64,000 nt of DNA from an uncultured Pseudomonadota bacterium. Its GTDB lineage: Bacteria > Pseudomonadota > Alphaproteobacteria > Rs-D84. Shown one piece after another: positions 1-61,930 of this stretch. The stretch spans positions 32,860 to 96,859 of the forward strand of contig CADBBQ010000001.1 in assembly GCA_902793005.1 (NCBI GenBank), in the 5' to 3' direction. The number at the start of each line of letters is the position of its first letter. Position 1 is the stretch's first letter. The position numbers were made by a program, and so were the translations under genes. The notes below the pieces were generated by a model. The model was given only the letters and a program-made list of their open reading frames with translations. It searched no databases and had not been told where the DNA came from.

Positions 1-972
1 AATGCGCTGGAACACGGGCGGCTGCATTTGGATGATTATTTAATTGTATCAAATGCGGCGGCAAATGCCGAACCGGTGAAATTGGGTCTGCCTGCGGGTT
101 CCAAGATAAAGGTCGAAGATGCGATTAAGGCCGTCGCCGTGCACAGTGCGAACGATGTCGCGCGCGTGCTGGCCGAAAATTTAAAGGGCGGCAAAGAGGG
201 CAACTTTGCGTCACTGATGACCCAGGTTGCAACGGAAATCGGTCTGTCGAATACAAATTTTGAAAATTCATCGGGTTTGCCTGACGATGACCACTTGTCA
301 ACCGCGCGTGATATCGCGTTGCTGTCGGTTGCGGTGTATAAACATTTCCCCCAGTATTGGAAATATTTCGGAATTAAAAGTTGGACATACAACGGCCAAA
401 CATACACAAATGGAAATCGGTTGCTTTCATCATATCCGGGCTGTGACGGTATGAAAACAGGATTTACAAACAAATCAAAATATTCACTTGTTGCAACCGC
501 ATCGCGTGACGGCCGTCATTTGATTGCGGTTGTGTTGGGTGCCGATGACAAAGATATTCGCGCATCTGTCGCGACCAGTTTATTGAATCGCGGATTTAAA
601 ATGTTGGAAAATGGAACAGAACCGGTTGTGTTTAATTCGGCACCAACACCGACCCCGGCTGTGCCGAAACAAAATTATAATGCCACACCGATAAACGAAA
701 ACAATCCATTGGCAAAATACACGATAAATCAGTCCAAAAATAACAATATGGCGTCCGGTGCATCTGGCGTGCAATTTGGCGCATTTTCATCGCGTGATGC
801 CGCCCTGCGCCAGGTTAAAAATGTTGAACACACCTTGGGTGTTCACGCATCAATTGAACCGGCATCTGGCGGTTTGTTCCGTGTGCGTGTGAATAACATT
901 TCGGAATCTGTGGCGCAAAGTTTGCGTAATTCTGCGACTGCCGCCGGCATTGACAGTTTTGTGTTTCATTAA
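1..972 (+). CDS. D-alanyl-D-alanine carboxypeptidase (PBP5/6-type), 5'-truncated at the window edge, with a C-terminal SPOR domain
   Basis: The reading frame is open from nt 1; ORF 28-972 begins with an alternative TTG start. Conserved serine-type D,D-carboxypeptidase motifs are present (SGLPDDDHLSTARDIALL, KTG in CDGMKTGFT). The C-terminal ~75 aa (GVQFGAFSSRDAALRQV...FRVRVNNISESVAQSL) match the SPOR peptidoglycan-binding fold. Confidence 0.75.
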   Translation, partial: NALEHGRLHLDDYLIVSNAAANAEPVKLGLPAGSKIKVEDAIKAVAVHSANDVARVLAENLKGGKEGNFASLMTQVATEIGLSNTNFENSSGLPDDDHLSTARDIALLSVAVYKHFPQYWKYFGIKSWTYNGQTYTNGNRLLSSYPGCDGMKTGFTNKSKYSLVATASRDGRHLIAVVLGADDKDIRASVATSLLNRGFKMLENGTEPVVFNSAPTPTPAVPKQNYNATPINENNPLAKYTINQSKNNNMASGASGVQFGAFSSRDAALRQVKNVEHTLGVHASIEPASGGLFRVRVNNISESVAQSLRNSATAAGIDSFVFH

Positions 973-990
973 TGGTATCGGGCACACAAT

Positions 991-1584
991 ATGAATCCAA
1001 AGATAGAAAAATTAATTAAACAATTTGCGCGTCTGCCCCGTGTTGGGAATCGTGCGGCCACGCGCATAGTGTTATCTTTGCTGAACGATAAAACGGGACG
1101 CGCGACGGCATTGGCGGAATCTTTGTTGGACACCACTGCGACAATTCATCCGTGTCAAAATTGTGGTGTTTTAACAGATGCCGACACTTGTGAATTTTGT
1201 CGTGACACATCGCGCAGAAACGGCACATTGTGCATTGTTCGCGATATGGCGGATGTTTGGACATTTGAAAAATCCGGCGTATTCAAAGGTGACTATCACA
1301 TAATTGGTGGTGTGTTATCGGGTGTAAATGGCGTAACCCCGGCGGATTTAAATATTCAAAATTTACCTGCGCGTATAAAATCAGAACATATTACCGAGGT
1401 TATATTTGCACTGCCCAACACGATTGAGGGTAAAACCACCGCGAACTATATTATGTCGGTCATTGGTGAAAATGAAAATATAACATTTTCAGAATTGGCG
1501 TCGGGCGTTCCATTGGGCGGCGAATTGGATTATATTGATGACGGCACATTGACATTGGCGTTCGGGGGGCGTAAAAAATTATGA
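991..1584 (+). CDS. recR: Recombination protein RecR
   Basis: 197 aa with the N-terminal helix-hairpin-helix, a C4 zinc finger (CQNCGVLTDADTCEFC) and a Toprim-like domain (LCIVRDMADV...). The length is typical for RecR. Confidence 0.93.
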   Translation: MNPKIEKLIKQFARLPRVGNRAATRIVLSLLNDKTGRATALAESLLDTTATIHPCQNCGVLTDADTCEFCRDTSRRNGTLCIVRDMADVWTFEKSGVFKGDYHIIGGVLSGVNGVTPADLNIQNLPARIKSEHITEVIFALPNTIEGKTTANYIMSVIGENENITFSELASGVPLGGELDYIDDGTLTLAFGGRKKL

Positions 1585-2411
1585 CAGATAAAATATCATC
1601 TTTGCCACCGGTGTCCCAAATGATGCGCGAATGCGGAATGCTGGCGAAAAAACAATTCGGTCAAAATTTTTTATTTGATTTAAATTTAACTGGTCGTATT
1701 GCGCGCGCTGTGCCGAACATTGAAAAAATCCCCGTGGTCGAGGTTGGACCCGGCCCGGCGGGCCTGACGCGGGCATTGCTGTTGGCGGGTGCGTGCAGGG
1801 TTGTTGCGATTGAAATGGATAAAACCGCCGAACCGATTTTATCACGTGTTGCCGCCGCCGCAGACGGTCGTTTGACGGTTGTGTATGGTGACGCATTGAA
1901 AACAGATTTTTCAAAATTCGGATTTGATGAATATGCGATTTGTTCAAACCTGCCATACAATGTTGGCACCGAATTATTGATTCAATGGATTCATAAAATT
2001 GTGGATGGCGAACCGATAAAATCCCTGACATTAATGTTCCAGCGCGAGGTTGCCGACCGAATTATTGCGCGCGCAAATGACGATGCGTATGGCCGTTTGG
2101 CGGTGTTGGTTGGATTGACGGCGGACGCAAAAATTTTATTCAATGTTCCGCGCACTGCGTTCACCCCCGCACCCAAGGTTACGTCTGCGGTTGTGCAAAT
2201 AATTCCGAATACAGACAAAATAAAATTATTGGGAAAAAATCTGGCGAACTTGGAAAAGATAACTGCGAAATTATTTGGCACGCGTCGCAAAATGATACGC
2301 GGCATTATGCCGGATGTTGATTGGTCGATGTTTGGTTTAACCGGCACCGAACGCGCAGAAAACATACCACCTGAAAAATTTTTAGAAATTTCAAAAAAAG
2401 TATTGATATAA
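1581..2411 (+). CDS. rsmA: 16S rRNA (adenine1518/1519-N6)-dimethyltransferase RsmA/KsgA
   Basis: QNFL...EVGPGPAGLT SAM-binding motif and NLPYN catalytic motif. 276 aa. Start overlaps the recR stop by 4 nt (operon-like). Confidence 0.92.
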   Translation: MTDKISSLPPVSQMMRECGMLAKKQFGQNFLFDLNLTGRIARAVPNIEKIPVVEVGPGPAGLTRALLLAGACRVVAIEMDKTAEPILSRVAAAADGRLTVVYGDALKTDFSKFGFDEYAICSNLPYNVGTELLIQWIHKIVDGEPIKSLTLMFQREVADRIIARANDDAYGRLAVLVGLTADAKILFNVPRTAFTPAPKVTSAVVQIIPNTDKIKLLGKNLANLEKITAKLFGTRRKMIRGIMPDVDWSMFGLTGTERAENIPPEKFLEISKKVLI

Positions 2412-2464
2412 CTTTTCCTGATTTAGTATAGTGATTTCGTATCCAGAGGAGAGGGAGACCCGAT

Positions 2465-4174
2465 ATGATTTCATTGGAAGTATTACTGTTTTTTGCAATT
2501 ACGTGCGGATTGGTTTTTTTCTTTAAAAGTGCCAGGATTGGTGCATTGGTTGCATTTTTATTTACCGGAATTTTATCGGGCCCATATATGTTGAACTTGT
2601 TTGAATTAACCGGCACGTGGCAGACCCTGGGTGATTTAGGCATTTTATTTTTATGGTTTACGATTGGATTGGAAATAAATTTTTCGCGCCTGTGGAATTT
2701 ACGCAACACGATATTCGGATTTGGTGCCGCCCAGGTTTTAATGGTTGCGGTAATGTTATTTCCGTTTTTGTTTGAATTCACGACGTGGAATGTTGCGGGT
2801 GCGATAATGGTATCATTGCTGTTGGCGATGTCATCAACATCCACAGACCTGCAATTATTGGGTGACCGAAATCAGTTAAATTCAAATATGGGTCGCCAGA
2901 TTTTTTCCGTATTATTATTCCAAGATTTATTGTCAATCCCGCTGTTGGCGATGTTGCCGGTATTGTCGGGTAAATCATTTAATCTGGGCGCGACATTAAT
3001 AGATGTTGCGGTATTGTCGGTATTATTGATATTTGGCGTTGTCATCATCGGGCGTTGTTTAATGAATCCGTTGTTGCGCGCAATTGCGAAAATAAAATCG
3101 CACGAGTTATTTTTGCTGGTCATAATGTTAAATATCATTATGTGGGCGGTATTACTGGATTTGGCGGGTTTGCCATCCGGATTGGGCGGATTTTTGTGCG
3201 GTATGTTAATGAGTGAAACAATATACCGTCATCAAATAGAGGCCGAAATCAGTCCATACACTACATTATTCTTGGCGATATTCTTTATTGTTCTGGGTAT
3301 GGGATTGAATATGGATTTACTGTATTCGAAATGGTATCTGGTATTGGGCGGATTGGCCGGATTAATGTTGATAAAGTTTTTTGCGATATTTATGGTTGCG
3401 CGCGTTCGTCGCAATCGTGCACCTGAATCCGGATACATTGCATTATTGTTAACCCAAGGTGGCGAGTTCGGATTACTGATGTTGCAAATGATGCGCAAGG
3501 CCGGCATTGATGCGATACCAATTGTTGACCAAGAAATTTTAATTGCGATAATTGTATTGTCGATTATGATGACGCCTTTGTTGTTGGCGCTGTATGAAAA
3601 ATTGCGTCGTATGGGCAAATTGTCCCAGGTTGATGCGAAAAATCTGAAATCGGCTAAAACAGGCATTCAACCGGCGGTGGTGATATGTGGATTTGGTCGT
3701 GTTGGTCAAATAATTGCGCGCCTGTTGCGGGATCAAAATATACCATATGTTGCGATTGGCCTGAATGTGAATTCTGTAATGGAGGGTCGCGAAAACGGGT
3801 TCAATGCTGTATATGGCGACGCATCGAATATGGCAATATTGCGAGATTGTGGATTAAATTCTCGTACAACGCGTGCGGTGGTATTGGCACTAGATAATAC
3901 GGAAAACGCGCGCAAAACGATATTGTCTGTGCGTGCGATTGCACCGCGTGCGAAAATATTTGCGCGTGCGCGTAATTTAAATGATTCGCGTGTGTTAATG
4001 CGTGCCGGTGTATTGCAAACATTTCCCGAAACGATTGAATCATCATTTTTCCTAGGATACGGTTTATTGGAATTTTTGGGTGTATCTGATGCCAAGATAG
4101 AAAAAATCTTGACCGAATTACGCGCAAATAATTATGAAAAATTAGACCAAGAAATAACCCCCAACGAAAAATAA
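2465..4174 (+). CDS. CPA2-family K+(Na+)/H+ antiporter with a C-terminal TrkA-N (RCK) domain, KefB/KefC-like
   Basis: About 12 predicted transmembrane helices followed by a Rossmann motif (VVICGFGRVGQIIARLL) typical of KefB/KefC. A ribosome-binding site (GGAGAGGGAG) precedes the start. Confidence 0.8.
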   Translation: MISLEVLLFFAITCGLVFFFKSARIGALVAFLFTGILSGPYMLNLFELTGTWQTLGDLGILFLWFTIGLEINFSRLWNLRNTIFGFGAAQVLMVAVMLFPFLFEFTTWNVAGAIMVSLLLAMSSTSTDLQLLGDRNQLNSNMGRQIFSVLLFQDLLSIPLLAMLPVLSGKSFNLGATLIDVAVLSVLLIFGVVIIGRCLMNPLLRAIAKIKSHELFLLVIMLNIIMWAVLLDLAGLPSGLGGFLCGMLMSETIYRHQIEAEISPYTTLFLAIFFIVLGMGLNMDLLYSKWYLVLGGLAGLMLIKFFAIFMVARVRRNRAPESGYIALLLTQGGEFGLLMLQMMRKAGIDAIPIVDQEILIAIIVLSIMMTPLLLALYEKLRRMGKLSQVDAKNLKSAKTGIQPAVVICGFGRVGQIIARLLRDQNIPYVAIGLNVNSVMEGRENGFNAVYGDASNMAILRDCGLNSRTTRAVVLALDNTENARKTILSVRAIAPRAKIFARARNLNDSRVLMRAGVLQTFPETIESSFFLGYGLLEFLGVSDAKIEKILTELRANNYEKLDQEITPNEK

Positions 4175-4199
4175 TCCCAGCCCCCTCCACGGGGGCTTT
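4175..4199 (+). terminator. Rho-independent terminator after the kefB-like gene
   Basis: GC hairpin (agccccc-tccac-gggggct) followed by a T-run. Confidence 0.5.
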
Positions 4200-4200
4200 T

Positions 4201-5040
4201 TAGTGTTCAGAATAATTAGACAAAACGTTGAAAACGTTTTGTCATCCTGAGCGTAGTGAGATTACGTTGTGGCAACCCCACATAAGTAATCGAACGCAGT
4301 CGAAAGCGAGCGTTTCGCGAGCGCGGATCCAGGCATATTTGATGCCCTGGCGCATCCGCGCCACCCCCTCGGACATTCCCCTTCTTTATGAAAGAAGGGG
4401 TGGATTGTGAGCAAAGCGAACAAGACGGGGTAGTTGTGATTTTTATTTTTTATGGCGACTGGCGTCGCTCTGCACAACGTTGAAAACGTTGTGCAAAAAT
4501 TTATTGCATACGCAAAAAAATTTTTTCTATAATAACATCAGAAATCATCTGGGAGTTGATTTCGGAAGGCCTTAGAAAAGCCCGATTGACCCGGTGCAGA
4601 ACTTGCATCGTTATCCCACCCGTGCACGATTCGATTCGGTGCGGTTGTGTTTAACAATTCATTTTTTGCACCGACATTTATTTGTCGATATTTGATTAGA
4701 TAAATGTAAATTTTATTCCCGACTAAAAAACCCGCCCAAAACACATTCACATATTTTGGCATGGGTGCCGCATACAGTAATGTATGTGGGGTCATTGGTC
4801 AATTGATTTTTCTAACACCCTGCCGTTATTTTTTCCCGCTGATTTCCCAGCGGTTTTTTGTTTGTTTTGGAATATTTAAACAGGCCCCGAACCCAACTCC
4901 CTGTGTAGAAAACACACACAAGGCCTTTTATTCCAAACAAACAATCCACCGCACAGATTCCGCCCCAAGCGATAGCGTGGGGAGGGGGACCGCGCCAGCG
5001 GTGGCGGGGGTTAACAAAAAGAAAGAACGGGAGAAAAGCT
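4201..5040. repeat. Copy A of a conserved non-coding leader/repeat region upstream of a secreted-protein gene (second copy at 36181-37393)
   Basis: Long stretches with obvious similarity to 36181-37393. Shared blocks are the cttctttatgaaagaagg hairpin, the acggggtagttgtga block, the promoter-like ttgca(t/c)acgcaa...ttttttctataata, and ggtgccgc(a/g)tacag(t/c)aatgtatgtggggtcattg...tttgctaacaccc. The RBS context gaacgggagaaaa(g/a)ctATG is also shared. The ORFs predicted here (e.g. 4228-4410) lie inside repeat DNA. Confidence 0.7.
4503..4538 (+). promoter_or_regulatory. Putative sigma70-type promoter (TTGCAT-18 nt-TATAAT) within the conserved leader; the matching copy is near 36545-36580
   Basis: ttgcatacgcaaaaaaattttttcTATAATaac. 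The same arrangement (ttgcacacgcaataaaattttttcTATAATacc) is found in copy B. A perfect palindrome cacaacgttgaaaacgttgtg lies immediately upstream and may be an operator. Confidence 0.4.
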
Positions 5041-7269
5041 ATGATAAAGAAAATATTATGTGCGATGTTGGGGCTATTATTCACGATATCTGCAAACGCG
5101 GCATGCAATTTATATACAACAACAAATAGTTCTGCCGGATACATTGATGGAAGTGGTGTTGTACAAAACGCGAGCAGTTATTTGGCAACGGATTACATTG
5201 CGGTTAACTCATCAACCGAATATACCGTTTATATCAAACAGAACGCTGCCATTAGCGGTCACGGGGTTCGTATTGCGTTTTATGATACAAACAAACAATT
5301 TATTTCTCCGCGCCTTGGTGGCGATGCCCCAAGTGCCGGTCAATATATATACAATTTAACATCGCCTGCAAATGCTAAATATATCAGAATGTCAACATAC
5401 GACGGTAATAGTGTTGTCGACAGAACAATAGTCCAGGGTCGATATACCGTGGACACAATCCCAACAAATATGTCGCAATGTGCGACGTGTGACGGGACGA
5501 TTGTGAATTATGTTTCTGCAACTGGAACCGTGTCGCAATCTGGAACTCCAACACCAGACAATCCGATTTATCCAACTTTCTATACCCAGGGCAATATGGT
5601 CCTGCGCAAAGTTGGCAATGTCGCAGATTCTTACGATGCGTCAACGGGTAAAATCACTCGTCGCGTCGGTGTTGCTGTGTTGGATGGTACGGAGAGATGG
5701 GGTGCTCACGCCAGTAACGCAGGTTGGTTTCAATTATCAAGTGATATTTTCCCAACAGATGTTAATACAGATGCATTAAGTACACACTATAGGCAATACA
5801 CACATAATCCATCAAGTATGGCCAATCAAGACATTTTATTTGGACGTCCAGACAGTAGCACAGGAAGAGTTGTTATACGTGATGCTATAAACTTTCCTGA
5901 TGTAGGTCTTGCGGATGATTTTAAATCCTGGCTAGCGCAACAATATGCTGCGGGAACGCCCGTGACGGTTTACTATCCGTTGAAAACGGAAACGACCGAG
6001 GATTGGCCGGCGTCTTACTGTGAAACGCCGATTAAAATCGCTACAACCAAATACAACGAAACTGCATTCAGTCCGCTGAATACGGCGTTGGCGAATGCGA
6101 TTAGTGTGGTGGATTCGGTGGTGTCAAACACGATAACCCAGGCGGCGAGCATCGCGACTTTGCAGGCACAAAAGCAAACGCGGCCGGCGAATGACACTTG
6201 TCCGGCGTACAAACAATGTTTATTGGTTGAGGATGAAAACGGTGCCCCGCACTGGTACGAAATCACCGACCCGTTCCGGGATTTCGTCCGCCCAATTATC
6301 GCGAACAATGTCAACGCGGCATCGTCGACATCCACCAATGGTTATACACAATTGGAATACATCGAATCAACCGGAACACAGTATATTGATACGGGGGTAC
6401 AAGCAACGGGTGATCTTGATATTAAAACAAGATTTAAAATAATATCATACGGCCCCCTATTTGGTACACGAGATGTTGCTACAGGAGCATCGAATAAATC
6501 GGTTTGGGTGGCAGCTTTGGACGGAAGAACCATTTGGTTATACAACAATAAAACTACACATAACCATTTGGAAAAATTAAATTTAGATCAATGGTATGAT
6601 GCAGATATAAACAAAGGCGTGTTATCTTTTAATGGCAATGAAGTTGCGTCGTATGAAACAGAAAATTTTACTGGTTCTGATATATTTCTATTTAATACAA
6701 ATGAGGCCAATGGCACTCTTGCAAGTGGGGCTTCTGTACAAATATCATATTTCAAAATTTATGATGCATCTGGCACCCTCGTTCGCAACTTTGTTCCAGT
6801 TGTTAATAATACAACCGGGAAAATTGGTATGTATGACACTGTCGGTGGGCGGTTCTATGGCAATGCGGCGACGTCGGGTGATGATTTCACCGCGGGTCCG
6901 ATTGTTGAAAACGATGCGGATGTTCCGGGTATGAGTTGGACCGCAACATGGGCGGCGGATGCATCCACGGGTGTTTCAGCCGGCACGGTGTACGGCATCG
7001 CCCGGTGTAATACCCACCCCTCAACGGCAGGTAGCATCATTACGGACACCGCCAGTACCGCATTTAACACACTGGGAAGTATTTGTCACTGTAAAATGAC
7101 ATCAATAGATTTCGAAGGCAGCATATCGGACACAAACACCGCAAAATGGGTGCATGTTGACCATGCAAACGGCGGAACAAAGGTATGTCTACAACAATGC
7201 AGCACATGGTGTCGCGGTTTTACAACAATGACCGAACGCAACAAACCGGTATTATCATCCGTATTGTAA
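5041..7269 (+). CDS. Secreted or lipoprotein paralog A (742 aa) of a two-member family; function unknown
   Basis: N-terminal signal peptide MIKKILCAMLGLLFTISANAAC. A central block (IKIATTKYNETAFSPLNTALANAISVVDSVVSNTITQAASIATLQAQKQTRP...CLLVEDENGAPHWYEI, YTQLEYIESTGTQYIDTG) is nearly identical to 37394-38899, while the N- and C-terminal parts diverge. C-terminal motifs are shared as well (GKIGMYDTVGGRFYGN vs GVVGMYDTDNGVFYEN). Confidence 0.7.
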   Translation: MIKKILCAMLGLLFTISANAACNLYTTTNSSAGYIDGSGVVQNASSYLATDYIAVNSSTEYTVYIKQNAAISGHGVRIAFYDTNKQFISPRLGGDAPSAGQYIYNLTSPANAKYIRMSTYDGNSVVDRTIVQGRYTVDTIPTNMSQCATCDGTIVNYVSATGTVSQSGTPTPDNPIYPTFYTQGNMVLRKVGNVADSYDASTGKITRRVGVAVLDGTERWGAHASNAGWFQLSSDIFPTDVNTDALSTHYRQYTHNPSSMANQDILFGRPDSSTGRVVIRDAINFPDVGLADDFKSWLAQQYAAGTPVTVYYPLKTETTEDWPASYCETPIKIATTKYNETAFSPLNTALANAISVVDSVVSNTITQAASIATLQAQKQTRPANDTCPAYKQCLLVEDENGAPHWYEITDPFRDFVRPIIANNVNAASSTSTNGYTQLEYIESTGTQYIDTGVQATGDLDIKTRFKIISYGPLFGTRDVATGASNKSVWVAALDGRTIWLYNNKTTHNHLEKLNLDQWYDADINKGVLSFNGNEVASYETENFTGSDIFLFNTNEANGTLASGASVQISYFKIYDASGTLVRNFVPVVNNTTGKIGMYDTVGGRFYGNAATSGDDFTAGPIVENDADVPGMSWTATWAADASTGVSAGTVYGIARCNTHPSTAGSIITDTASTAFNTLGSICHCKMTSIDFEGSISDTNTAKWVHVDHANGGTKVCLQQCSTWCRGFTTMTERNKPVLSSVL

Positions 7270-7282
7270 TGTCTTTACCAAA

Positions 7283-7312
7283 TAAAAAACATCCGGCAAC
7301 GGATGTTTTTTT
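7283..7312 (+). terminator. Rho-independent terminator
   Basis: aaaaaacatccggcaacggatgtttttttatg: the stem catccg/cggatg followed by a T-run. Confidence 0.55.
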
Positions 7313-7371
7313 ATGTTTGCTTTTGTTGTGTGATATTGCTATATTTTCTGCGTTGATATAAAGGCGGAAAT

Positions 7372-7878
7372 ATGAAGGTTGCTATTAAATATTTATCAAT
7401 AATTTTTGGTGTCATATTATTGGACCAAATTGTTAAATCTTTATTGTTATATCTGATTACGGGGACTGTGCCGGTGGCGGGTAATGCGTGGGGTATCGTT
7501 GGGTATCCGTATATTATGGCGCGCGTCACCGATTGGTTTAATATTGTGTTTACTTGGAATCCGGGAACATCGTTTTCTTTGTTCCGTGCCCTGGGCGAGG
7601 GCGCACCCTGGGTCATCGTTGGCGCAACCGGGGTGATTTGTGCGATGCTGGTTTATTATATGTTTTGGCGCGCCGGGAAAAACGAGCGGTTGCCGCTGGC
7701 ATTTATTATTGGTGGCGCAATTGGGAACTTAATAGACCGTGTGCGTTTTGGCGCGGTGGTTGATTTTTTGGATTTTCATATTGGCGGACTGCATTGGCCG
7801 GCATTTAATATCGCCGATATGTTTATTGTAATTGGTGTTGCGTTGTATATAATCAATATAACTTTTCGTAAAAAATAA
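7372..7878 (+). CDS. lspA: Lipoprotein signal peptidase (signal peptidase II)
   Basis: 168 aa with four transmembrane segments and the conserved NxGxxF/FNIAD motifs (WNPGTSFSLF; FNIADMFIVIG). Confidence 0.9.
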   Translation: MKVAIKYLSIIFGVILLDQIVKSLLLYLITGTVPVAGNAWGIVGYPYIMARVTDWFNIVFTWNPGTSFSLFRALGEGAPWVIVGATGVICAMLVYYMFWRAGKNERLPLAFIIGGAIGNLIDRVRFGAVVDFLDFHIGGLHWPAFNIADMFIVIGVALYIINITFRKK

Positions 7879-7889
7879 AGGGTAAAATA

Positions 7890-9458
7890 ATGGTTGAGTA
7901 TCTGAATAATAATTCTGGATTTGCGGCGTGGAATGCGGCACAAAATCGCGGTGCACCGCGTTCGCGTTTTTCGAATTTTTTATGGTGGACATTTTTGTTT
8001 TTGGTTGCGTGGTGGATTGTTGGATTGTTTATGTCACCTGCGCAAAACGAAAATAAAAACGCGCCGGCGGCGGATGCGTCAATTTTGGTGGATGTGTCAA
8101 ATGTCCCGGTGTATGAAATTTCATCTGACACGATTGCGGCAAATGTTCGTGGCCTGCGCGTGTCAAATATAGATTTAAAAGATTTTGCAAAATCGGGCGA
8201 TGACAATACGCCGGTACGAATGCTGGGCGATGATGGATTTGTTGAAATTGGCCTGACGTCAAACGGCACGACCGCGCCAAATGCCACGACAAAATGGCAA
8301 AAATCTGGGGATAAAATGGTTTGGCGCAATGGCGACGGTGTGGAATTTTCTCGCACAATTACGGTTGATGGATATTTAATTCGCGTATCAGACACGGTTA
8401 AAAATAATACGAAAAACGGAATTTCTGTGGCGCCATACGCACGCGTGTTGCACAAGGGCGATGCATCGTCGTCGGCCGGCGTTTATACCGGTGCCGTTGC
8501 ATATGTAAACCAAGATGTTGAAAATAACGCGTGGCGTGATTTGGATAAAAAATCATACGCATACACAACGACAAATGGATTCGTCGGATTTGCCGAGCAA
8601 TACTGGGAAACAATTGTGCAAACCGATGCGCCCGATCAAACAATGCGTATGAAAAAGCAGGGCGATTTATACGAGGCCGCAACCGTTGCCGCGCCGGTAA
8701 ATATTGCGGCGGGAAAGACACAGACAATCACAACAAATGTTTTTGCCGGCCCGCGCGATGCAAATGTGTTGCGCACGGTTGACGCGACAATTAACGGTAT
8801 TGGCGAAACCATAGATTATGGTTGGTTTTGGTTCTTGGCACGGCCGATGTTGTGGTCAATAAATATGATTCATAAATTTGTGATGAATTATGGTTTGGCG
8901 ATTATAATCTTTACGATTTTAATTCGTATTTTGATGTGGCCATTGACGCGTAAATCATATACTTCGATGATTGCAATGCAGAAAATGCAGCCTGAATTGC
9001 AACGCGTGCAAAAATTATATGCTAATGACAAACAACGTATGCAAATGGAAATGATGCGTGTGTATCAAACGCACAAAACATCACCTATGTCGGGATGTTT
9101 GCCGATGTTGATTCAGATTCCAATTTTCTTTGCATTGTATAAAGCGTTATTGATTTCGGTGCAAATGCGTAATGCGAACTTTTTATGGATACACGATTTG
9201 GCGACGATGGATCCGTATTTTATATTGCCGATTTTAATGGGCGCAACAATGTGGTTGCAACAATATCTGCAACAAAATAAAACAGACACGAAAAACAAAA
9301 ATGATATAACGGCTCAAACCGCCCAGGTTATGAAATGGATGCCGATATTGTTTGCAATAATGTTTGCGTGGATGCCATCCGGCCTGGTGTTGTATTGGAC
9401 TGTATCGAATATATTTGGTATCGGCCAGATGATGTGGTTAAAACACAAATCAAAATAA
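7890..9458 (+). CDS. yidC: Membrane protein insertase YidC
   Basis: 522 aa: an N-terminal transmembrane helix, a large periplasmic domain, and the conserved C-terminal 60-kDa-IMP core (YGLAIIIFTILIRILMWPLT...MQKMQPELQRVQKLY...MSGCLP). Confidence 0.93.
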   Translation: MVEYLNNNSGFAAWNAAQNRGAPRSRFSNFLWWTFLFLVAWWIVGLFMSPAQNENKNAPAADASILVDVSNVPVYEISSDTIAANVRGLRVSNIDLKDFAKSGDDNTPVRMLGDDGFVEIGLTSNGTTAPNATTKWQKSGDKMVWRNGDGVEFSRTITVDGYLIRVSDTVKNNTKNGISVAPYARVLHKGDASSSAGVYTGAVAYVNQDVENNAWRDLDKKSYAYTTTNGFVGFAEQYWETIVQTDAPDQTMRMKKQGDLYEAATVAAPVNIAAGKTQTITTNVFAGPRDANVLRTVDATINGIGETIDYGWFWFLARPMLWSINMIHKFVMNYGLAIIIFTILIRILMWPLTRKSYTSMIAMQKMQPELQRVQKLYANDKQRMQMEMMRVYQTHKTSPMSGCLPMLIQIPIFFALYKALLISVQMRNANFLWIHDLATMDPYFILPILMGATMWLQQYLQQNKTDTKNKNDITAQTAQVMKWMPILFAIMFAWMPSGLVLYWTVSNIFGIGQMMWLKHKSK

Positions 9459-18020: not shown

Positions 18021-20477
18021 TCAGTTCATTTCTAATGGTGGGAAACAATCGCCACTGCCCGCCGGACAGCACGCAAATGGGTATTCCGAATCAGGTCCCA
18101 TTTCCGTATAAACTTCGCCCGGACAGCACCCGTTTGCATCAGGTGCCGCACCATCGCAATCCAAACTGCCAACCGTGTCGGCACCTGGGGTGGCGGCGGG
18201 TTGATTAAATGGATTGACGATGACATTTGTTTCATTACCGTCGGCATCTTTTTCGTATTTCAATCCCAAAATATCTTTATTGTATGCCTTGGTTTGTTCT
18301 TCTGTGCGGTTGTCGGCCGTTCCATATGTGTTTTGGAAAGCCTGTTGTTGACTGTTATAATACGCATCCTGCTTTGCCATATTAATCGCCGTATAGTTCT
18401 TGGCCTGGCAATAAGCCAACACCGTTCTGTAATCGTATCCCGCGTTTGATATTTCCAAAGCGGCATTATCTTTAATGCCCCAAACGCCCTTGGTATCTTG
18501 GCTGCAATATGGGTCCAAGTTAAACGCACGAACCTGACCAATCCAGGAAGAATCTGTTTTATCAACGGTCATTTTGCCTTTGACATCTTTCCATTCGCGA
18601 CGTTTTTTATCACTATATTTTGCAAAGGCGCATTTCTTACCCGCGTTTGGCCCGTTTTCATCGCCACAGGTTGCAATCAAATCAACCGGTGAATATACAG
18701 TAATGCGAGTGCCTGCGGCAATTGAAAATGGTGGAACCGTATTATCCAACGCATCAACCATCAATTTTTGTGCAACCTTGTTCCAGGCGGAAATAACCTC
18801 GTTCTTGGCCAATTCGGACGACCGTACCGTCCCCGATTGCACGACCGTGTTATTATCTAAATCAATTTGATTTACAAATGTATCTGCAATCGGTGCAATC
18901 ATATTCACCGCCGCCGGAATCACCGCCGTCAGCAATGGCATAACCATTTGTTCGATATAATCGGTACTGCCATAACCCGGGACACCAACACGCCCCTGGG
19001 AATCCGCAGAATAGGGGTCTTGGTCTTCGTTTTTGAAATTGAATTCAACGCCGTCTGGACGAATAAATTGATACCATTTAATTTCCATACGACCAATGGA
19101 TTTATATGGGCCGGGTAAATTACCACGCAGATAGCCCAACAACAAAGTCCCGGTTGGAATAATGACCGTGCGGCCATTATCGGAATAAACATTTCTGTCC
19201 ACGGTTGCACGAACAGGAATGCCACTGCCGCCTTTGCAATTGCCGTCGTTATCACAATCATACACGGACGGATCGGCGCGAACCTCGGACACTATTGTTG
19301 CCGGAATTGGTTTGAATTGACGCAATATAAATGTTCTGTCATATGGCATACTGGAATAAACCGATTCTGCTTCCTCGGCCGAACCCTTTAATGCATCTGC
19401 GTTCACAGAATTTACGATAAAATTCATACCACCTTCGGTTGGATTCATTGTCTTTTTTAAATTATTCATCCCGCTGGGTTTATATCCATCAGACACCGCC
19501 GTGCGTGTCGCGACAGCCGTCGATTTTGAACGCAATTTTGGTACCGAATTTGCGTTAACCGATGTTCCACGATGATCGGCATCCGTCCCAATTTTGCGCC
19601 CACGACCATCAATACTGGTTATAATCCCCGTATCCGGATTATAAATACCCGTTGGCTTGTTGCATTCGGTATCTGAAAAAGGATGAAATTCATATCGTCC
19701 CGATTTTGGTTTTATCCATCCGATTTGTGTTCCCGACATATCATATCCCGGCATCGCAAAATCAGAACACTTTTCAGGTGCACGCCGCCGTGGTGTTTCG
19801 ACCGGTGTGTTATTTTCAAAAATATTTTTATTCCCACCAACAATTGGTTCAGGCTCATCAAAATCTTCGTCATCAATCAGTTCGTTATCATCGGCAACAA
19901 TGTCATCATCAACCGGTATCGGTTGGGCCACTGGCTTTTTTTCTGGGGCAGGTTCTGGTTTTTTTGTGGCTCCAACGGCACTGACCGGGATAACAATTTT
20001 CGATGTTTGTAAATTCGTATCGCGTGAATCGTTTTTATCATACCATTCAACCAACAAAGTCACTTCGCCCGTTGTGTCCGCCGCACCCGGGGTAAATGTC
20101 ACATCAACCGAACACGGAATATCTTTATTCACCGGTTGATTAGTGCACCCGGCCGTATTCGCCGAAAACCCAGGTACCGAATTTTGCACACTAACCGAAT
20201 CAACAATTGCATCATATGTTGCGTTTATACGGAAAACTTGGCTGCGCTTTGTGCCAATAGGTGTTTTTGAAAAATCAACATTGTTTGGTGTTATCATCAA
20301 TGTGACATCGCGGTTTTGATGCACCACGGTTGGATTATTGACCGGGCGTGACCGTCCCACCAATAAAAACAACAAAATCAATACCACGACAAACGCCGCC
20401 ACCAATAACATCCAGCGAACCGCCTGGGGTGTTGATTCAAAGGTTTCTTTGATTTTGTCTTTGATTGTATTCGCCAT
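18021..20477 (-). CDS. VirB10/TrbI/ComB10-family protein with an N-terminal TM anchor, Pro-rich linker and a cysteine-rich C-terminal extension (818 aa)
   Basis: A transmembrane helix (MLLVAAFVVVLILLFLLV) and a Pro-rich segment (KKPEPAPEKKPVAQPIPVDDD). The conserved VirB10 C-terminal beta-barrel region (PVRATVDRNVYSDNGRTVIIPTGTLLLGYL...IGRMEIKWYQFIRPDGVEFNF...PFSIAAGTRITVYSPVDL) occupies roughly residues 400-620. About 200-250 further residues follow, ending in CDGAAPDANGCCPGEVYTEMGPDSEYPFACCPAGSGDCFPPLEMN. Confidence 0.8.
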   Translation of the reverse strand: MANTIKDKIKETFESTPQAVRWMLLVAAFVVVLILLFLLVGRSRPVNNPTVVHQNRDVTLMITPNNVDFSKTPIGTKRSQVFRINATYDAIVDSVSVQNSVPGFSANTAGCTNQPVNKDIPCSVDVTFTPGAADTTGEVTLLVEWYDKNDSRDTNLQTSKIVIPVSAVGATKKPEPAPEKKPVAQPIPVDDDIVADDNELIDDEDFDEPEPIVGGNKNIFENNTPVETPRRRAPEKCSDFAMPGYDMSGTQIGWIKPKSGRYEFHPFSDTECNKPTGIYNPDTGIITSIDGRGRKIGTDADHRGTSVNANSVPKLRSKSTAVATRTAVSDGYKPSGMNNLKKTMNPTEGGMNFIVNSVNADALKGSAEEAESVYSSMPYDRTFILRQFKPIPATIVSEVRADPSVYDCDNDGNCKGGSGIPVRATVDRNVYSDNGRTVIIPTGTLLLGYLRGNLPGPYKSIGRMEIKWYQFIRPDGVEFNFKNEDQDPYSADSQGRVGVPGYGSTDYIEQMVMPLLTAVIPAAVNMIAPIADTFVNQIDLDNNTVVQSGTVRSSELAKNEVISAWNKVAQKLMVDALDNTVPPFSIAAGTRITVYSPVDLIATCGDENGPNAGKKCAFAKYSDKKRREWKDVKGKMTVDKTDSSWIGQVRAFNLDPYCSQDTKGVWGIKDNAALEISNAGYDYRTVLAYCQAKNYTAINMAKQDAYYNSQQQAFQNTYGTADNRTEEQTKAYNKDILGLKYEKDADGNETNVIVNPFNQPAATPGADTVGSLDCDGAAPDANGCCPGEVYTEMGPDSEYPFACCPAGSGDCFPPLEMN

Positions 20478-20508
20478 AACTATCTGTCCGTATTTTGTTT
20501 ATCACATA

Positions 20509-22026
20509 TTATTGGATTCTGACCACGCGGCATCCCGATACTTGGAATTTCATCAGTTTATCGCACAATGTTTGTGCTTCATCAATGTCCGCCAATGGGC
20601 CAATGCGCAAACGATACATTGCGGCCGACGATACGCCCGAACCTAAATCGCCCACACCTTCGGTATCAATGGCAAAGAACACTTTGTTTTGATATGGAGT
20701 CAAAATTCCAGCACCACCATCGCCACTGAATTTAACTAACAAATCGTTCCAGTATTCTTCCAACGCCTTGGGTGATTTGTCAGACGCAAATTCCACCGCA
20801 ACCCCCGATTGATTAGATTTAATCAACGGAATATTTGATTGTGGCAAATACGAACCGGCTGTTTCGCGCACGGTTGGCATCATCGATGTCCCACCAGATG
20901 TTGTGGAAACATTTGTCGTATTTGTTGACGCACCGTATCCAGCCGGCATATAAACGCCCGTTGCCATTGGATTTGGTACATTTGACATATACATCGGTGT
21001 CGCGGTGTAATCCATTGTGCCACCATACATCGCCGACATATCTGCATCATACGCGATATTGTTTAATGATTGTCCAGACATCATACTTTGCGCAACATTC
21101 GCCTCGGCCAACGCCATAACCGATGCCGTGTCCGCAATCAAGAACGGTTTTTCACGTTTTTTGATACAAACGATGCGTTGACCACTGCGCAACACCATAT
21201 CACCCACAGCCTCGACAATTAATAATCTGCCGTCTTGACCATCGGTGCGGAAACCAACCGGGGATTCGCCACCTTCGATTAATAAAGACACCACCGGTCT
21301 TTGTGTCATTGCGATAACCTTGTCGCCAAAGTCAATATATGTAAATATTTTATCACGCCACACGCGTTCCGGCGCAATTACATAATCGTCCGGGTTTGGA
21401 ACAAAAATATCCAAATCAAATCTGAATTCAGACGGGTCAATTTTCATAGATTTAATCCACGCATAATCTTCGCCGTCAACGCCAACGGTATTCGATGCCG
21501 GCGCCGCCTTTTTAAATATAGAATTCATCCCCCCAGATTGGCGCTGTGGCGTGGCGGTCGCATTTGCAACCGTTGCACCATTGTCCAACACAATATCCAC
21601 CTGGGAATAAGAAATTTCCGAAGAATCTATTGTCCCGGGACTGGACAGGTAAAATATGTATTTATTTCCTGATTGTCCCGTCACAATCATATTTGTATCG
21701 GATTCGCTTGCCTCCATTGGGGTCACATAAAATGTTCGGTCGCCTTGGGTTGCCTCGATTTGATACAAAGATTGGTCGCCAACAACGGCATCAGCAATTT
21801 GTTCGCCGTTTGGCAATGTCACCATTGTCACCATACCATTGCGTAATTTTAAAGGCAAAACCGTCCCCGTTGACCACGCCAATTGTGCGTATCCGGGTTT
21901 CGTACTGCCGGCGGCCATATTTGCGGTTGGGTTTTCCCACGCGCGTTGTACAGCGGCATCGGCGACGCCCACAGACATCAAAATCAACAAAGACACTAAT
22001 CCATTGATTTTTAAAACTTTTAACAT
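20509..22026 (-). CDS. VirB9/TrbG/ComB9-family protein with a C-terminal low-complexity linker and SPOR-like domain (505 aa)
   Basis: Signal peptide MLKVLKINGLVSLLILMSVGVADA. A VirB9 N-domain (GDRTFYVTPMEASESDTNMIVTGQSGNKYIFYLSS) and a VirB9 C-domain (KIFTYIDFGDKVIAMTQRPVVSLLIEGGESPVGFRTDGQDGRLLIVEAVGDMVLRSGQRIVCI). Then about 200 extra residues: a S/T/M/G/Y-rich linker and a terminal SPOR-like segment (...YRLRIGPLADIDEAQTLCDKLMKFQVSGCRVVRIQ). Confidence 0.7.
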   Translation of the reverse strand: MLKVLKINGLVSLLILMSVGVADAAVQRAWENPTANMAAGSTKPGYAQLAWSTGTVLPLKLRNGMVTMVTLPNGEQIADAVVGDQSLYQIEATQGDRTFYVTPMEASESDTNMIVTGQSGNKYIFYLSSPGTIDSSEISYSQVDIVLDNGATVANATATPQRQSGGMNSIFKKAAPASNTVGVDGEDYAWIKSMKIDPSEFRFDLDIFVPNPDDYVIAPERVWRDKIFTYIDFGDKVIAMTQRPVVSLLIEGGESPVGFRTDGQDGRLLIVEAVGDMVLRSGQRIVCIKKREKPFLIADTASVMALAEANVAQSMMSGQSLNNIAYDADMSAMYGGTMDYTATPMYMSNVPNPMATGVYMPAGYGASTNTTNVSTTSGGTSMMPTVRETAGSYLPQSNIPLIKSNQSGVAVEFASDKSPKALEEYWNDLLVKFSGDGGAGILTPYQNKVFFAIDTEGVGDLGSGVSSAAMYRLRIGPLADIDEAQTLCDKLMKFQVSGCRVVRIQ

Positions 22027-22051
22027 CCCTTTCTTCCTTTGTTTTTTTATT

Positions 22052-22813
22052 TTAATTTGCTTGGCGTGTCCAATTTAACGGATCATATTGTTCTTGGTCC
22101 AAGATTTTGCCATCTGGGCCGATAACATTATATTCACTGACACGGAAACCCAACGGGTTTTCCATACGTTCCGCCCAACGAATTGCATTGTTTGCATTAG
22201 ATTCCAATTTCACGCGCAATCTGTATGGTTTACGATATTCCATATCCCCCAACGGCCCATAATTGCACACATATGTAAAACTGACATCATATGTATCGGC
22301 GGTATTTGATGCGACCGTATCAACCACAGAATAACTGGCCGGATATTCAACCGTGCACCGGACATCAAAAGCCTCGTCTAAATCTTGACGGATAACATTT
22401 ACCATATCTGTCATAACGAATTGTCCAAAAACCGTATCTGTTGAACGATTTTTGATAACCCCATCGTCGCTGTACGCCCATTTTGCACGCATAATCGCCA
22501 AATCAGGCACGATTTCATTACGTTCACGAACATATTCGCGAATAAATTGTTTTTTGTAATCGTCCAAATTTTCCGGCATCTGGGTCAACGTCAGTTCTTT
22601 ATCAGTTAAATTTTGCGATGTTAAAAAGAACACCTGGGGACGATTTAACGGGAACATTTTATCCAATGTCCAAACCAATACCCCCAGCACGACCAAGGCC
22701 GTTGCCATAACAAAGGTCATTAATCTAGATATCAAAACTGGCGGTTCTATGCGTTCTGGCACAGGTTTTTCTCCCCCTTTTATTAAATGATTGTAGAAAA
22801 AATATTTATACAT
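22052..22813 (-). CDS. VirB8/ComB8-family protein
   Basis: Short cytoplasmic N-terminus, one transmembrane helix (LMTFVMATALVVLGVLVW) and a periplasmic NTF2-like domain carrying the VirB8 signature NPLGFRVSEY. ORF 22052-22819 begins with TTG; an ATG two codons in (22813) is the likelier start. Confidence 0.75.
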   Translation of the reverse strand: MYKYFFYNHLIKGGEKPVPERIEPPVLISRLMTFVMATALVVLGVLVWTLDKMFPLNRPQVFFLTSQNLTDKELTLTQMPENLDDYKKQFIREYVRERNEIVPDLAIMRAKWAYSDDGVIKNRSTDTVFGQFVMTDMVNVIRQDLDEAFDVRCTVEYPASYSVVDTVASNTADTYDVSFTYVCNYGPLGDMEYRKPYRLRVKLESNANNAIRWAERMENPLGFRVSEYNVIGPDGKILDQEQYDPLNWTRQAN

Positions 22814-22997
22814 ACGCAAGTAAAAAATATATAAAACTTATCTGAAAAGTGCGCCCTGAAAACTGAACGCCGGGGCAAGTTTTTACTTGCGTTAAAATAA
22901 TTAAATCTTTATAATATTTTTCGCTTGATTTTTGCCAATGTTGTGCTAGCCTTGGCAAGAATATCGGTTATATCGTGCGCAACGGGTTTGTCTATCC

Positions 22998-25132: not shown

Positions 25133-25172
25133 AAAGTTTGAACTTTGAACTTTGCACTTTGAACTTTGATAA
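25133..25172. repeat. TTTGAAC/TTTGCAC short tandem repeat (intergenic rplA-rplJ); an identical 33-mer occurs at 61938-61970
   Basis: ttgaactttgaactttgcactttgaactttgat is found verbatim at both loci. Degenerate relatives are at 36190-36228, 36490-36520, 36945-36985 and 44078-44175. Confidence 0.8.
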
Positions 25173-25318
25173 CAAGATTTCTGTCCGAGACTGATGGTGT
25201 GGCAACACTTAATTCCCATCATAGACAAAGAAAATTCTTTGGGGCAGAAAGCAAAGCCCCACCCACAAAACAATGTGGATGGATAAGTTAAACAAAACGA
25301 AGAAGTAAGGGTATATAG

Positions 25319-36192: not shown

Positions 36193-37393
36193 GTGTTCAG
36201 AGTTCAAAGTACAAAGCACAAAGTACAATTATGGCAGGATAATTCATTCTCGGACATTCTCCTTCTTTATGAAAGAAGGAGTACCCGAGCAAGCATCGGC
36301 GCGCGAGGGGGAGGTAGTTGTGCACGGCGACAAAGTGAAACGGCGTCGCCATAAAAAAAATTAAAAATCACAACTGCCCCGTCTGACTCGTTGACACTCG
36401 TCATCCACCCCTTCTTTTCCCGTCCCCGCACAGCGGGGCCGCGGTTGAAAAGACGGGGAATATCCAATAATAAATAATTATGCCACAACTGAACTTTGTA
36501 CTCTGTACTCTGAAAACTGCACAACACCCGTTGTGCAAAAAAATATTGCACACGCAATAAAATTTTTTCTATAATACCTTTGTGAATCCGAAACAAGGGA
36601 GTTGGATTCCGGTGGCTTTAGCAGGCCTAAAAACTCCGGTGCAAAGTTTGCATCGTGACTCTCCCAATCTGAAAAACCGATTCGATAATCGGGATGATTG
36701 TGTTTGTTGCATCCATATTTTGCACCGACATTTTTATCACGGTGCCGGAGAAAATTTTTAAATCCCCCTGATGAAAATGTAAATTTTTCCCAGACTGAAA
36801 CCCCCATTATAACATTTTATGTTTGTCGGGGTGCCGCGTACAGCAATGTATGTGGGGTCATTGAGTTTTTGATTTGCTAACACCCCGGCCGCATTCCCGT
36901 TTTTGGATTTGGCGGTGTTTTTTATTTTTTCGCGACTGCGAAAAAATAACAGAGTTCAGAGTGCAAAGTTCAGAGTTCAGTTGATGAATTATTGAATTTG
37001 ACTGTGAACCCAGCCCCGGACATTCCCCGTCGCCAATTTTTACCGAGGTAAAACCGAGGATTAAAAATTGAGCGCCGCGCCGTAGCATTGCGCGTTTTGG
37101 GGGAACGAACCTTGTTTTGTCGGCGAAGGCGGGCAAACCCTCGCGTCAGCACAAAAAGAAGGGGTGGCACGAAACCGTCAGGTTGAGTGACGGGGTAGTT
37201 GTGAAAAAATTACCGCACGGTGGCGTTTTGTTTTGGGAAAATTAAAGGCTCCGAATTCAATTCCCTCGACACAACTGCGTTGTGTCTGCGGGGCACTCCT
37301 CGCTCACGACCAGTTGTGTTTAAACAAAACCAGGCTTTTTGTCCCGAAACAAATCCACCGCACGAACAAAAAGAAAAGAACGGGAGAAAAACT
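36181..37393. repeat. Copy B of the conserved non-coding leader/repeat region (see 4201-5040), longer and with extra internal repeat units
   Basis: Shares the cttctttatgaaagaagg hairpin, acggggtagttgtg units (three, one inverted), the TTGCAC...TATAAT promoter, the conserved block ggtgccgcgtacagcaatgtatgtggggtcattg, and gaacgggagaaaaactATG. Confidence 0.7.
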
Positions 37394-40581: not shown

Positions 40582-40612
40582 AAACCCCGTTTCCGGGGCT
40601 TTATTTTTAGTT
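40582..40612. terminator. Bidirectional terminator between mraZ and the convergent cysteine-rich protein gene
   Basis: aaaaccccgtttccggggctttatttttag. It is preceded by a 3x tandem repeat of aaaaatttagcaaaa at 40495-40540. Confidence 0.55.
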
Positions 40613-61925: not shown

Positions 61926-61930
61926 CGGAA

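Follow-up and report, generated by a model that had tools for sequence, protein, structure and literature searches.

When two exported proteins resemble each other most closely in a short central block, is that block a mobile cassette copied from one gene to the other, or is it the constant part of a protein whose surroundings are exchanged? The question is posed by a 64,000-nucleotide stretch of DNA (referred to here as the window) from an uncultured bacterium of the alphaproteobacterial order Rs-D84 (GenBank assembly GCA_902793005.1, contig CADBBQ010000001.1, positions 32,860 to 96,859), in which two genes, here termed A and B, encode such proteins. Gene A occupies positions 5041-7269 and encodes 742 residues; gene B occupies positions 37394-38899 and encodes 501 residues, its start codon (ATG at 37394) being preceded by the ribosome-binding sequence GGGAG. 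A first-pass annotation of the window had pointed out both open reading frames (ORFs), for which the public gene calls yield the same two products, and had attributed their common block to gene conversion or cassette shuffling. In our opinion, A and B probably belong to an unannotated family of exported, lectin-like proteins built from phage-fibre parts, which would adhere to the glycans of partner cells and whose modules are swapped by recombination.

Judged by their sequences, A and B are true paralogues (BLASTP E-value 1e-64, 38% identity across A179-611 and B55-490). Their similarity is distributed unevenly. In a 20-codon sliding window, identity rises to a sharp peak at A335-384, where it reaches 0.85-0.90 for amino acids and 0.77-0.83 for nucleotides, compared with amino acid identities of 0.05-0.5 in the flanks; a further peak coincides with the motif YTxLEYIESTGTQYIDTG. 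Pairwise alignment thus reveals a block of raised identity and not a low, uniform similarity. At the nucleotide level, blastn aligns 6036-6186 with 38044-38194 (151 nt, 81%, E 9e-37) and 6335-6396 with 38304-38365 (79%). The block singled out in the first-pass annotation does stand out, but the DNA identity of about 85% claimed for it proved too high: across 6019-6270 it is 72% (182/252). Moreover, A 6019 pairs with approximately 38027 of B, so that the coordinates given for the B copy (38046-38290) were shifted. The N-terminal parts, said to differ completely, are in fact partly alignable: A has an additional domain of about 150 residues, and A179-330 pairs with B55-210 at low identity, including the family motif TGKITR. 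The C-terminal domains had rightly been called distantly related, being about 30% identical.

Within the window, tblastn finds no family members other than A and B. A supposed third member near 61013 was rejected, the match being a chance GC-rich stretch within an unrelated 460-aa ORF. Analogously, the 818-aa ORF at 18021-20477, which equals paralogue P0012 in length, is a TrbI/VirB10-like protein.

A protein search with A returned more than 540 homologues at E-values up to 1e-3, and no Pfam domain was found in any of them. Few are named, and all of these are entered as "hypothetical protein" of "Alphaproteobacteria bacterium" metagenome-assembled genomes (MAGs). Neither A nor B matches a profile in the Pfam (even at E-values up to 1), NCBIfam, PHROGs or PADLOC libraries; sequence searches of the PDB with family profiles (from alignments A2 and A3) gave no meaningful match. 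A full-text literature search found no paper containing the motif LEYIESTGTQYIDTG, and no description of this protein family was found in the literature on Enterousia, RF32 and Rs-D84.

In an alignment of 35 sequences, all invariant columns fall within B216-298, for which the consensus is IATTKYNE..F.PL...L...AISVVD.VVSNTITQA..IATLQAQKQTRP ... CPAGKKCLLVED..G.PHWYEI; the residues C, P, C, L, L, V, G, P, W and I of the hairpin are invariant throughout. On this evidence, the block common to A and B is the constant mid-helix-hairpin scaffold of the whole family and is not private to these two proteins. What the first-pass annotation called a cassette corresponds to the constant core helix, the most conserved part of the family, which lies at 6031-6186 in gene A (aa 331-382, IKIATTKYNETAFSPLNTALANAISVVDSVVSNTITQAASIATLQAQKQTRP) and at 38039-38194 in gene B (aa 216-267); like all parts of the two genes and their promoters, leaders and hairpins described below, both are on the forward strand. 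The helix is succeeded by a two-cysteine β-hairpin (A, 6199-6264, aa 387-408, CPAYKQCLLVEDENGAPHWYEI; B, 38222-38287, aa 277-298). Upstream of the helix, gene A encodes a low-confidence linker (approximately aa 145-177) and a conserved mid, or "shoulder", domain (together 5446-6030), recognizable by the motifs TSATGTVSQSGTPTPDNPI, GKITRRVGV and QQYAAGTPVTVYYPL; its counterpart in gene B (37514-38023, aa ~41-210) is divergent and, in the structural model, β-rich with one helix.

The order mid domain, KQTRP helix, Cys hairpin is kept in most of 120 homologues. LamG-type (laminin G-type) modules stand on one or both sides of this scaffold, and a Cys-rich tail may be added, which makes more than 10 architectures among the 120. 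The plan of these proteins is thus a signal-peptide-like start, zero to two variable modules resembling carbohydrate-binding modules (CBMs) or LamG, the mid domain, a helix of about 45 residues and the two-cysteine hairpin, to which most members add a variable LamG/ConA-like module at the C-terminus. In gene A, the variable CBM-like β-sandwich domain precedes the scaffold (5101-5445, aa 21-135), the LamG/ConA-like C-terminal "head" follows it (6343-6900, aa 435-620, from YTQLEYIESTGTQYIDTG to GMYDTVGGRFYGN...FTAGP), and the optional Cys-rich extension, which is lacking in B, ends the protein (6901-7269 with the stop codon, aa 621-742). The homologous head of B occupies 38312-38899, including the stop codon (aa 307-501). 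In the subset of homologues that possess it, the Cys-rich tail shows a conserved CWC ... C..C...C pattern and is sometimes placed after the C-terminal module.

Signal-peptide-like N-termini are present in 99 of the 120 homologues. The signal peptides previously proposed for A and B agree with the Sec-like appearance of the N-termini, in which, as read from the sequence, K or KK precedes a hydrophobic run of 12-14 residues and a putative cleavage site (ANA↓A or VLA↓Q). In A this region comprises aa 1-20 (5041-5100, MIKKILCAMLGLLFTISANA), after which cleavage would take place; in B it comprises aa 1-19 (37394-37450, MKKILSLVLGLLWAVPVLA), with a helix at residues 2-12 in the model. Many members, B not among them, have a cysteine right after the predicted signal peptidase site (aa 22 in A; motif A[NA]C-NL; columns ~120-135 of alignment A2). 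A canonical lipobox, [LVI][ASTVI][GAS]C, was not found: A has NAAC, B has no cysteine, and many homologues have FANC or WAAC, in which position -3 is non-canonical. The cysteine could serve as a disulfide partner or as an atypical lipidation site.

The family is confined to few organisms. When 185,579 species, each represented by a single genome, were scanned with two core peptide patterns, 75 loci were located in only 8 MAGs, among them RUG14746 (24 loci), RUG13870 (22), UBA3635 (17), RUG13375 (8), Candidatus Enterousia onthequi (5) and two other MAGs; as the scan used these two patterns, its counts are lower bounds. Many of these loci lie at contig ends. In a few uncultivated gut and rumen Alphaproteobacteria, Candidatus Enterousia among them, each genome thus has roughly 20 copies of the family at dispersed sites. 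With about 20 genes of about 2 kb in a genome of about 1 Mb, it makes up several percent of such a genome. It should be noted that Enterousia and the order Rs-D84 have genomes of less than about 1 Mb, without the TCA cycle, respiration or standard transporters; they are predicted to be obligate symbionts or parasites that depend on a partner, and incomplete sugar catabolism is reported for them (PMC12306168). Bacteria of the gut and rumen that are uncultivated and have such small genomes presumably live at the expense of other cells. A family that is unannotated, has phage-fibre-like and lectin-like parts, and is visibly reshuffled between strains is, in our opinion, a strong candidate for the machinery by which they recognize their partners.

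Predicted structures are consistent with this view. The AlphaFold2 (AF2) model of B (mean predicted local distance difference test, pLDDT, 71.7) consists of a β-rich mid domain, a long helix (residues 221-262), the hairpin (283-297, with strands at 283-287 and 293-297) and a confidently modelled β-sandwich (308-489, pLDDT ~90). A Foldseek search of the PDB with the B head matched pentraxins, LNS/LG domains (agrin G2, neurexin LNS2), CBM40, the lectin domains of trans-sialidases, and CBA120 TSP2, with probability 1.0, E-values of 1.6e-5 to 6e-4, TM-scores of 0.48-0.58 relative to the target, and sequence identities of 9-15%. In BFVD the head matched uncharacterized gut Siphoviridae proteins (best E-value 3e-13, 30% identity), as well as phage proteins labelled "LamG-like jellyroll" or "ConA-like". 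As modelled, the head therefore has the ConA/LamG/pentraxin jelly-roll fold, although it matches no Pfam profile of the Laminin_G type, or any other family there, at E-values up to 1. The N-terminal domain of A is modelled as a CBM-type β-sandwich. In the core helix, 8 of 12 hydrophobic residues fall at the a/d positions of a heptad register, and the helix would form a coiled-coil neck, probably trimeric.

The connection with phages extends to the sequence of the mid domain. A tblastn search with it found a match on one human-faecal phage contig, where aa 213-403 of a 442-aa ORF align with the domain at an hhalign probability of 99% (E 2.6e-18). This ORF contains a short collagen-like tract and lies directly upstream of a GH25 endolysin gene, a position that would be typical of a tail-fibre gene. 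The INPHARED phages contained no tblastn match to the B head. The earlier guess that the proteins might be related to tail fibres or lectins thus agrees both with the predicted head fold and with the homology of the mid domain. Genes A and B themselves are located outside any phage structural module and have housekeeping neighbours: a kefB-like gene and lspA-yidC-lpxD in the case of A, rpoBC-rpmF-plsX and mraZ in the case of B. The G+C content of both loci resembles that of the remainder of the window. In one other case, a family member is followed directly by genes for a T7-like scaffold and capsid and by a weak terminase-like match, on a contig deposited as an uncultivated viral genome (L086; IMG/VR UViG, 1-9258). 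This "viral" contig matches a bacterial MAG locus (L059, RUG14746 contig 2) at 98%, and the locus may be a prophage or phage-derived element. It was not accepted as evidence for a virion fibre, since the gene is equipped with a signal peptide and a leader (L086:14-359) and the contig agrees with the bacterial locus.

The opening question can be addressed by comparisons between strains, whose contigs are collinear with the window at both loci. At locus A, strain L079 (product P0004, 616 aa) agrees with the window at 98-100% identity as far as about position 5500, and identity drops across 5500-5700. Over approximately 5700-7300 it amounts to 23-66%, except at the core (6001-6200), where it is 83-87%; downstream, it is back at 98% from 7284 and at 99% from 7301. 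Strain L081 (product P0002, 742 aa) is identical to the window (100%) over 5101-6300, 40-53% identical over 6401-6800 and 95-99% identical elsewhere, a segment of the gene A head (6397-6773) having been replaced. At locus B, another strain has a 469-aa protein (P0072) between the same neighbours. Here the flanks are 98%, the leader 99% and the signal-peptide region 89% identical; 37444-38043 and 38336-38782 are unrelated, the core is 84% identical, and identity is 97% from 38783 on. Analogously, L086 and L059 have flanks that are 98% and leaders that are 95% identical, with unrelated N-terminal LamG modules.

In these comparisons, breakpoints fall at constant blocks, namely the leader and signal peptide, NPI...GKITRRVGV, YIDTG, and LVRNFVP or GMYDT. 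The replaced segments have relatives elsewhere in the family. The segment swapped into P0002 is 78% identical to the N-terminal LamG module of P0109, and P0019 and P0020 have, at positions different from that in A, modules that match the head segment of gene A itself at 92-94% identity. LamG segments with identities of 78-94% are thus N-terminal in some proteins and C-terminal in others. The mosaicism is genuine, and recombination shapes these proteins. Cassette shuffling, as proposed in the first-pass annotation, does take place in the form of segment replacement between strains at both loci; the near-identical block, however, is not what is shuffled or converted. The exchanged cassettes are the variable lectin modules and the conserved blocks are the crossover anchors, the reverse of the logic proposed earlier.

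Why, then, is the core so similar in A and B? In the core helix, the two genes differ by a pS of 0.45, a dS of 0.69 and a dN of 0.15 (Nei-Gojobori); in the Cys hairpin, synonymous sites are saturated, and in the flanks pS is 0.64-0.73. Throughout the core block, dN is 0.04-0.2. Because synonymous divergence is substantial (dS ~0.7) and dN is low, the high identity of the core is mainly due to purifying selection on the scaffold; older homogenization or lineage-specific expansion may contribute. For the same reason, together with the saturation of the hairpin, recent gene conversion of the core block is excluded for A and B. In a set of 74 helix copies, amino acid variants are genome-specific, with a pN of 0.05-0.09 within and 0.17-0.47 between genomes, and synonymous differences within genomes are plentiful (median pS 0.33-0.58).

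Both genes are preceded by the same long upstream element, as the first-pass annotation had noticed. A 48-nt promoter block (4487-4534), which holds a perfect TATAAT, is 92% identical to 36529-36576. At locus A, the putative promoter (4504-4533) consists of a -35-like TTGCAT (4504-4509), an 18-nt spacer and the -10 box TATAAT (4528-4533); it was missed by a consensus scan, the -35 box agreeing at only 3/6 positions. At locus B, the putative promoter (36546-36575; TTGCAC ... TATAAT) is in register with it. Each promoter is followed by an RNA leader of about 340 nt with covariation-supported structure (A, 4535-4872, nhmmer E-value 8e-98; B, 36578-36943, 5e-103). In locus A the leader ends in an intrinsic-terminator-like hairpin (4836-4853) with a T-run behind it (hairpin and T-run together, 4836-4862), and in the leader alignment this hairpin is conserved. 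The ribosome-binding sequence GGGAG of gene A (5029-5033) lies in a block (5013-5058) that is 87% identical to 37365-37408, and a further terminator-like hairpin with a 12-bp stem and a T-run is found 3' of the gene (7284-7311).

Profile searches find the full-length leader at at least 33 copies in other MAGs in addition to the two in the window, always upstream of and co-oriented with the gene, and upstream of this protein family only. The ATG lies 19-451 nt (median 100) beyond the end of the leader. In an alignment of 31 copies (A4), RNAalifold predicts 50 base pairs, 22 of them with compensatory changes, including two long-range helices whose strands are separated by about 230-240 nt in locus A, or about 360-400 columns of the alignment. 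Of the alignment cells, 93.7% are paired, compared with 83.4% in shuffled alignments (0 of 500 reach the observed value) and 36-47% when partners are slid; double-change cells number 174, compared with 57 in shuffles and 25-37 with slid partners. Rfam 15 contains no family that matches the leader at its gathering threshold, and none that is credible at E-values up to 1. The leader is thus a covariation-supported candidate for a new class of cis-acting attenuators or riboswitch-type elements. Like riboswitch-type leaders and the OLE, GOLLD, ROOL and raiA RNAs, it is large (about 340 nt), with covarying long-range helices, and has one or more terminator hairpins between promoter and ORF; unlike those classes of large structured RNA, it has no Rfam family and occurs upstream of a single protein family. 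Public calls place an 85-aa ORF antisense within the leader (4538-4795, reverse strand), which is probably spurious because of the covariation.

Two kinds of repeats were seen near the leaders. GC-rich short dispersed repeats (4352-4460, 4940-5011, 36249-36417, 61013-61062 and 61896-61932) flank them and recur elsewhere; these include the hairpin CCCCTTCTTT..AAAGAAGGGG and are among the segments replaced between strains. Dispersed arrays of short units of the TTGAACTTTG / TTGCACTTTG type are located at 25138-25179, 44141-44182, 61938-61979, 36194-36268, 36449-36523 and 36950-36993, and at locus B such units form 44-nt imperfect inverted repeats around the promoter and leader.

According to the mechanism that we favour, the proteins would be exported by Sec, and the core helix would form a coiled-coil, probably trimeric, neck like that of phage receptor-binding proteins (RBPs). 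The variable modules would bind glycans, and with this repertoire an organism dependent on other cells would attach to partner cells or host surfaces, or would recognize them. Paralogues, and likewise strains, would generate new specificities by recombining homologously at the constant blocks as anchors, and expression would require read-through of the leader terminator or terminators.

Several considerations weigh against this reading. We infer export, oligomeric state, ligand and cellular location. A Sec signal peptide on its own leads only to the periplasm of a Gram-negative cell, and no surface anchor, outer-membrane export signal or canonical lipobox was found. The models are of moderate confidence (mean pLDDT ~71), with low values for the helix and linkers in the monomers, and a match to a lectin-type fold does not prove that sugars are bound. 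No donor of a swapped segment was found in the genome that carries the segment, so that recombination among paralogues, as distinct from that between strains, has to be deduced. The argument from lifestyle rests on the occurrence of the family in Candidatus Enterousia as well. Finally, about 20 copies have no leader detectable with the leader profile; a profile built from all 31 leaders added no further full-length leaders for them, returning only split hits in L005 and L064 and one hit in L015.

How do other explanations fare? A first alternative, in which the central block passed between A and B as a mobile cassette or through recent conversion, draws on the lower pS of the core helix relative to its flanks, and the genome-specific amino acid variants of the core would fit some past homogenization or lineage-specific expansion. 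Recent conversion is excluded, however, by a helix dS of ~0.5-1.0 together with the saturated hairpin, and is at odds with the pS among the ~20 copies within a genome, with the mere 72% DNA identity of the block and with its conservation in all of the more than 540 homologues. In addition, the two locus B alleles share the core at just 84% between flanks of 97-99%, which indicates that the core travels with the gene body; we therefore regard such copying as very unlikely. Less probable still, to the point of being barely tenable, is a programmed system of variation, be it an expression site with silent cassettes, promoters inverted by the serine recombinase encoded at 59015-59614, or a diversity-generating retroelement (DGR). 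It is true that this is a multigene family with conserved and variable blocks, that a resolvase/invertase-type gene is present in the window and that imperfect inverted repeats surround the promoter and leader at both loci. The latter, however, are short dispersed repeats also found elsewhere in the window, and strain contigs are collinear. A full leader is present at 30 of the 56 copies with at least 700 nt of upstream sequence (a set in which a signal-peptide-type start is found by construction), and neither silent truncated cassettes nor promoterless partial donor cassettes were seen among the copies scanned. Every full-length leader hit has the orientation of its gene, and no inverted hit was seen; an inverton was rejected on present data on this ground, with the proviso that assemblies show the majority orientation only and might miss a rare inversion. 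A DGR was rejected as the A/B mismatches in the shared block have no adenine bias, and no reverse transcriptase is found among the annotated neighbours of the A and B loci, beyond which none was looked for.

As for function, capture of glycans for nutrient scavenging, in the manner of surface glycan-binding proteins and without adhesion to partner cells, would be in keeping with the CBM-like and LamG-like folds, with a polysaccharide-rich gut or rumen habitat, and with the reported lack of standard transporters in the lineage (PMC12306168). This appears unlikely to us: no transporters, TonB-dependent receptors or glycoside hydrolases are linked to locus A or B, the reported sugar catabolism of these organisms is incomplete (PMC12306168), and the architecture of a coiled-coil neck with a head, together with the fast exchange of modules, would seem closer to recognition proteins engaged in an arms race than to metabolic binding proteins. 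Polymorphic, recombining targeting domains are typical of receptor-targeted toxins and bacteriocins, and the lectin modules could be the targeting domains of secreted proteins of this kind. Yet no toxin or enzymatic domain was found in Pfam, NCBIfam or PADLOC, no immunity-like neighbour gene is conserved at both loci, and the matches are to generic CBM folds only, which leaves the toxin explanation with little credibility. The proteins might also be domesticated tail fibres that act within a phage-derived particle (a prophage, tailocin or gene transfer agent) instead of being exported freely. The homology of the mid domain to part of the ORF beside the endolysin gene, the occurrence of the head and N-terminal domain folds in phage tail fibres and tailspikes, and the member directly upstream of T7-like scaffold and capsid genes all suggest a phage connection. 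A role in particles is nevertheless highly doubtful, given that signal-peptide-like N-termini, normally absent from virion proteins, occur in 99 of 120 members and that even the capsid-adjacent member has one, with a leader. Moreover, A and B are flanked by housekeeping genes, the approximately 20 copies are dispersed through each genome, many with their own leader, and no PHROG is matched.

Among known systems, the exported lectin-like proteins proposed here are most readily compared with phage RBPs and tail fibres of the shoulder-neck-head type, such as those of lactococcal phages. In both, a conserved proximal part is joined through a helical neck to a jelly-roll head that can be swapped, both evolve as mosaics through recombination at conserved junctions, and domains of the family have fold matches to domains of CBA120 TSP2 and TSP4 and to phage fibre proteins. 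Unlike phage RBPs, however, the family has signal peptides and about 20 chromosomal copies in housekeeping contexts, with no virion genes at A or B; many copies have a promoter and structured leader of their own, and the trimeric neck is presumed. With Anaplasma Msp2/Msp3, Neisseria pilE/pilS, Borrelia vlsE, Treponema tprK and the Mycoplasma families it shares numerous paralogues, variable segments set between constant blocks, the replacement of segments from copy to copy or from strain to strain, and an occurrence in host- or partner-dependent bacteria with reduced genomes. It differs from these variable surface-protein families in that there is no single expression site and no set of silent cassettes, the examined copies looking complete; the exchanged units are whole lectin-type domains, and there is no sequence or fold relationship. 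The head, for its part, is modelled as a β-sandwich jelly-roll like those of the LamG/ConA-like lectin superfamily (pentraxins, LNS/LG, CBM40, the trans-sialidase lectin domain), from which it is set apart by signatures of its own, YxxLEYIESTGTQYIDTG and GMYDTxxGxFYxN. As a recombining multigene set of surface or secreted binding proteins, the family is thus of a kind already known; its unannotated parts and the new RNA element are what is new.

A bolder extension of our reading can be offered only tentatively. The approximately 20 exported, phage-RBP-like trimeric lectin fibres might be "host-range" determinants with which the bacterium chooses and holds the cells that it lives off, their modules being swapped at built-in anchors and the repertoire being gated by the undescribed class of ~340-nt leader RNAs, which would sense a common signal. 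If true, this would be the bacterial equivalent of a phage receptor-binding arsenal.

The LamG module by itself is far more widespread than the family. A search of 1.84 billion cluster representatives with a whole-family profile returned 39,285 proteins at E-values up to 1e-3 and 27,071 at E-values up to 1e-10. Many of the top matches cover the LamG module only and include giant proteins from public genomes and metagenomes, in which the module occurs as many as 13 times and whose length reaches 7,647 aa. None of the giants examined (P0121-P0212, e.g., P0143 and P0150) is named, and Pfam has no model for the module. In P0143 (3,651 aa) it is accompanied by 12 BspA-type leucine-rich repeat stretches, by a Listeria-Bacteroides repeat and, at the C-terminus, by a hydrophobic segment resembling an anchor, a combination that constitutes an adhesin-type context. 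The giant proteins share the LEYIxSTGTQYIDTG ... GMYD module with the family; unlike it, they lack the mid-helix-hairpin scaffold and are encoded by single huge genes and not by a dispersed family of small ones. What emerges is a LamG-type adhesin module that is very widespread and for which the searched libraries hold no profile.

Some other features of the window deserve mention. A 772-aa ORF on the reverse strand (56607-58925) has no Pfam match. The small serine recombinase (59015-59614, reverse strand), which has a resolvase N-terminal domain and a helix-turn-helix, adjoins tRNA-Thr (59832-59907); a link to the family is not supported, no inverted promoter-leader segments having been found. 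At 40607-42958, on the reverse strand, lies a 783-aa ORF (called as 759 aa) without a Pfam hit, whose Cys-rich product has a signal-peptide-like start and a low-complexity region rich in R, T and S, and differs in length between strains (759 vs. 483 aa). Finally, type IV secretion genes on the reverse strand (18021-22819) encode the unusually long, 818-aa TrbI/VirB10-like protein and a CagX/VirB9-like protein with a SPOR domain, next to a 255-aa ORF; these genes could be relevant to a partner-dependent lifestyle or to the export of periplasmic proteins.

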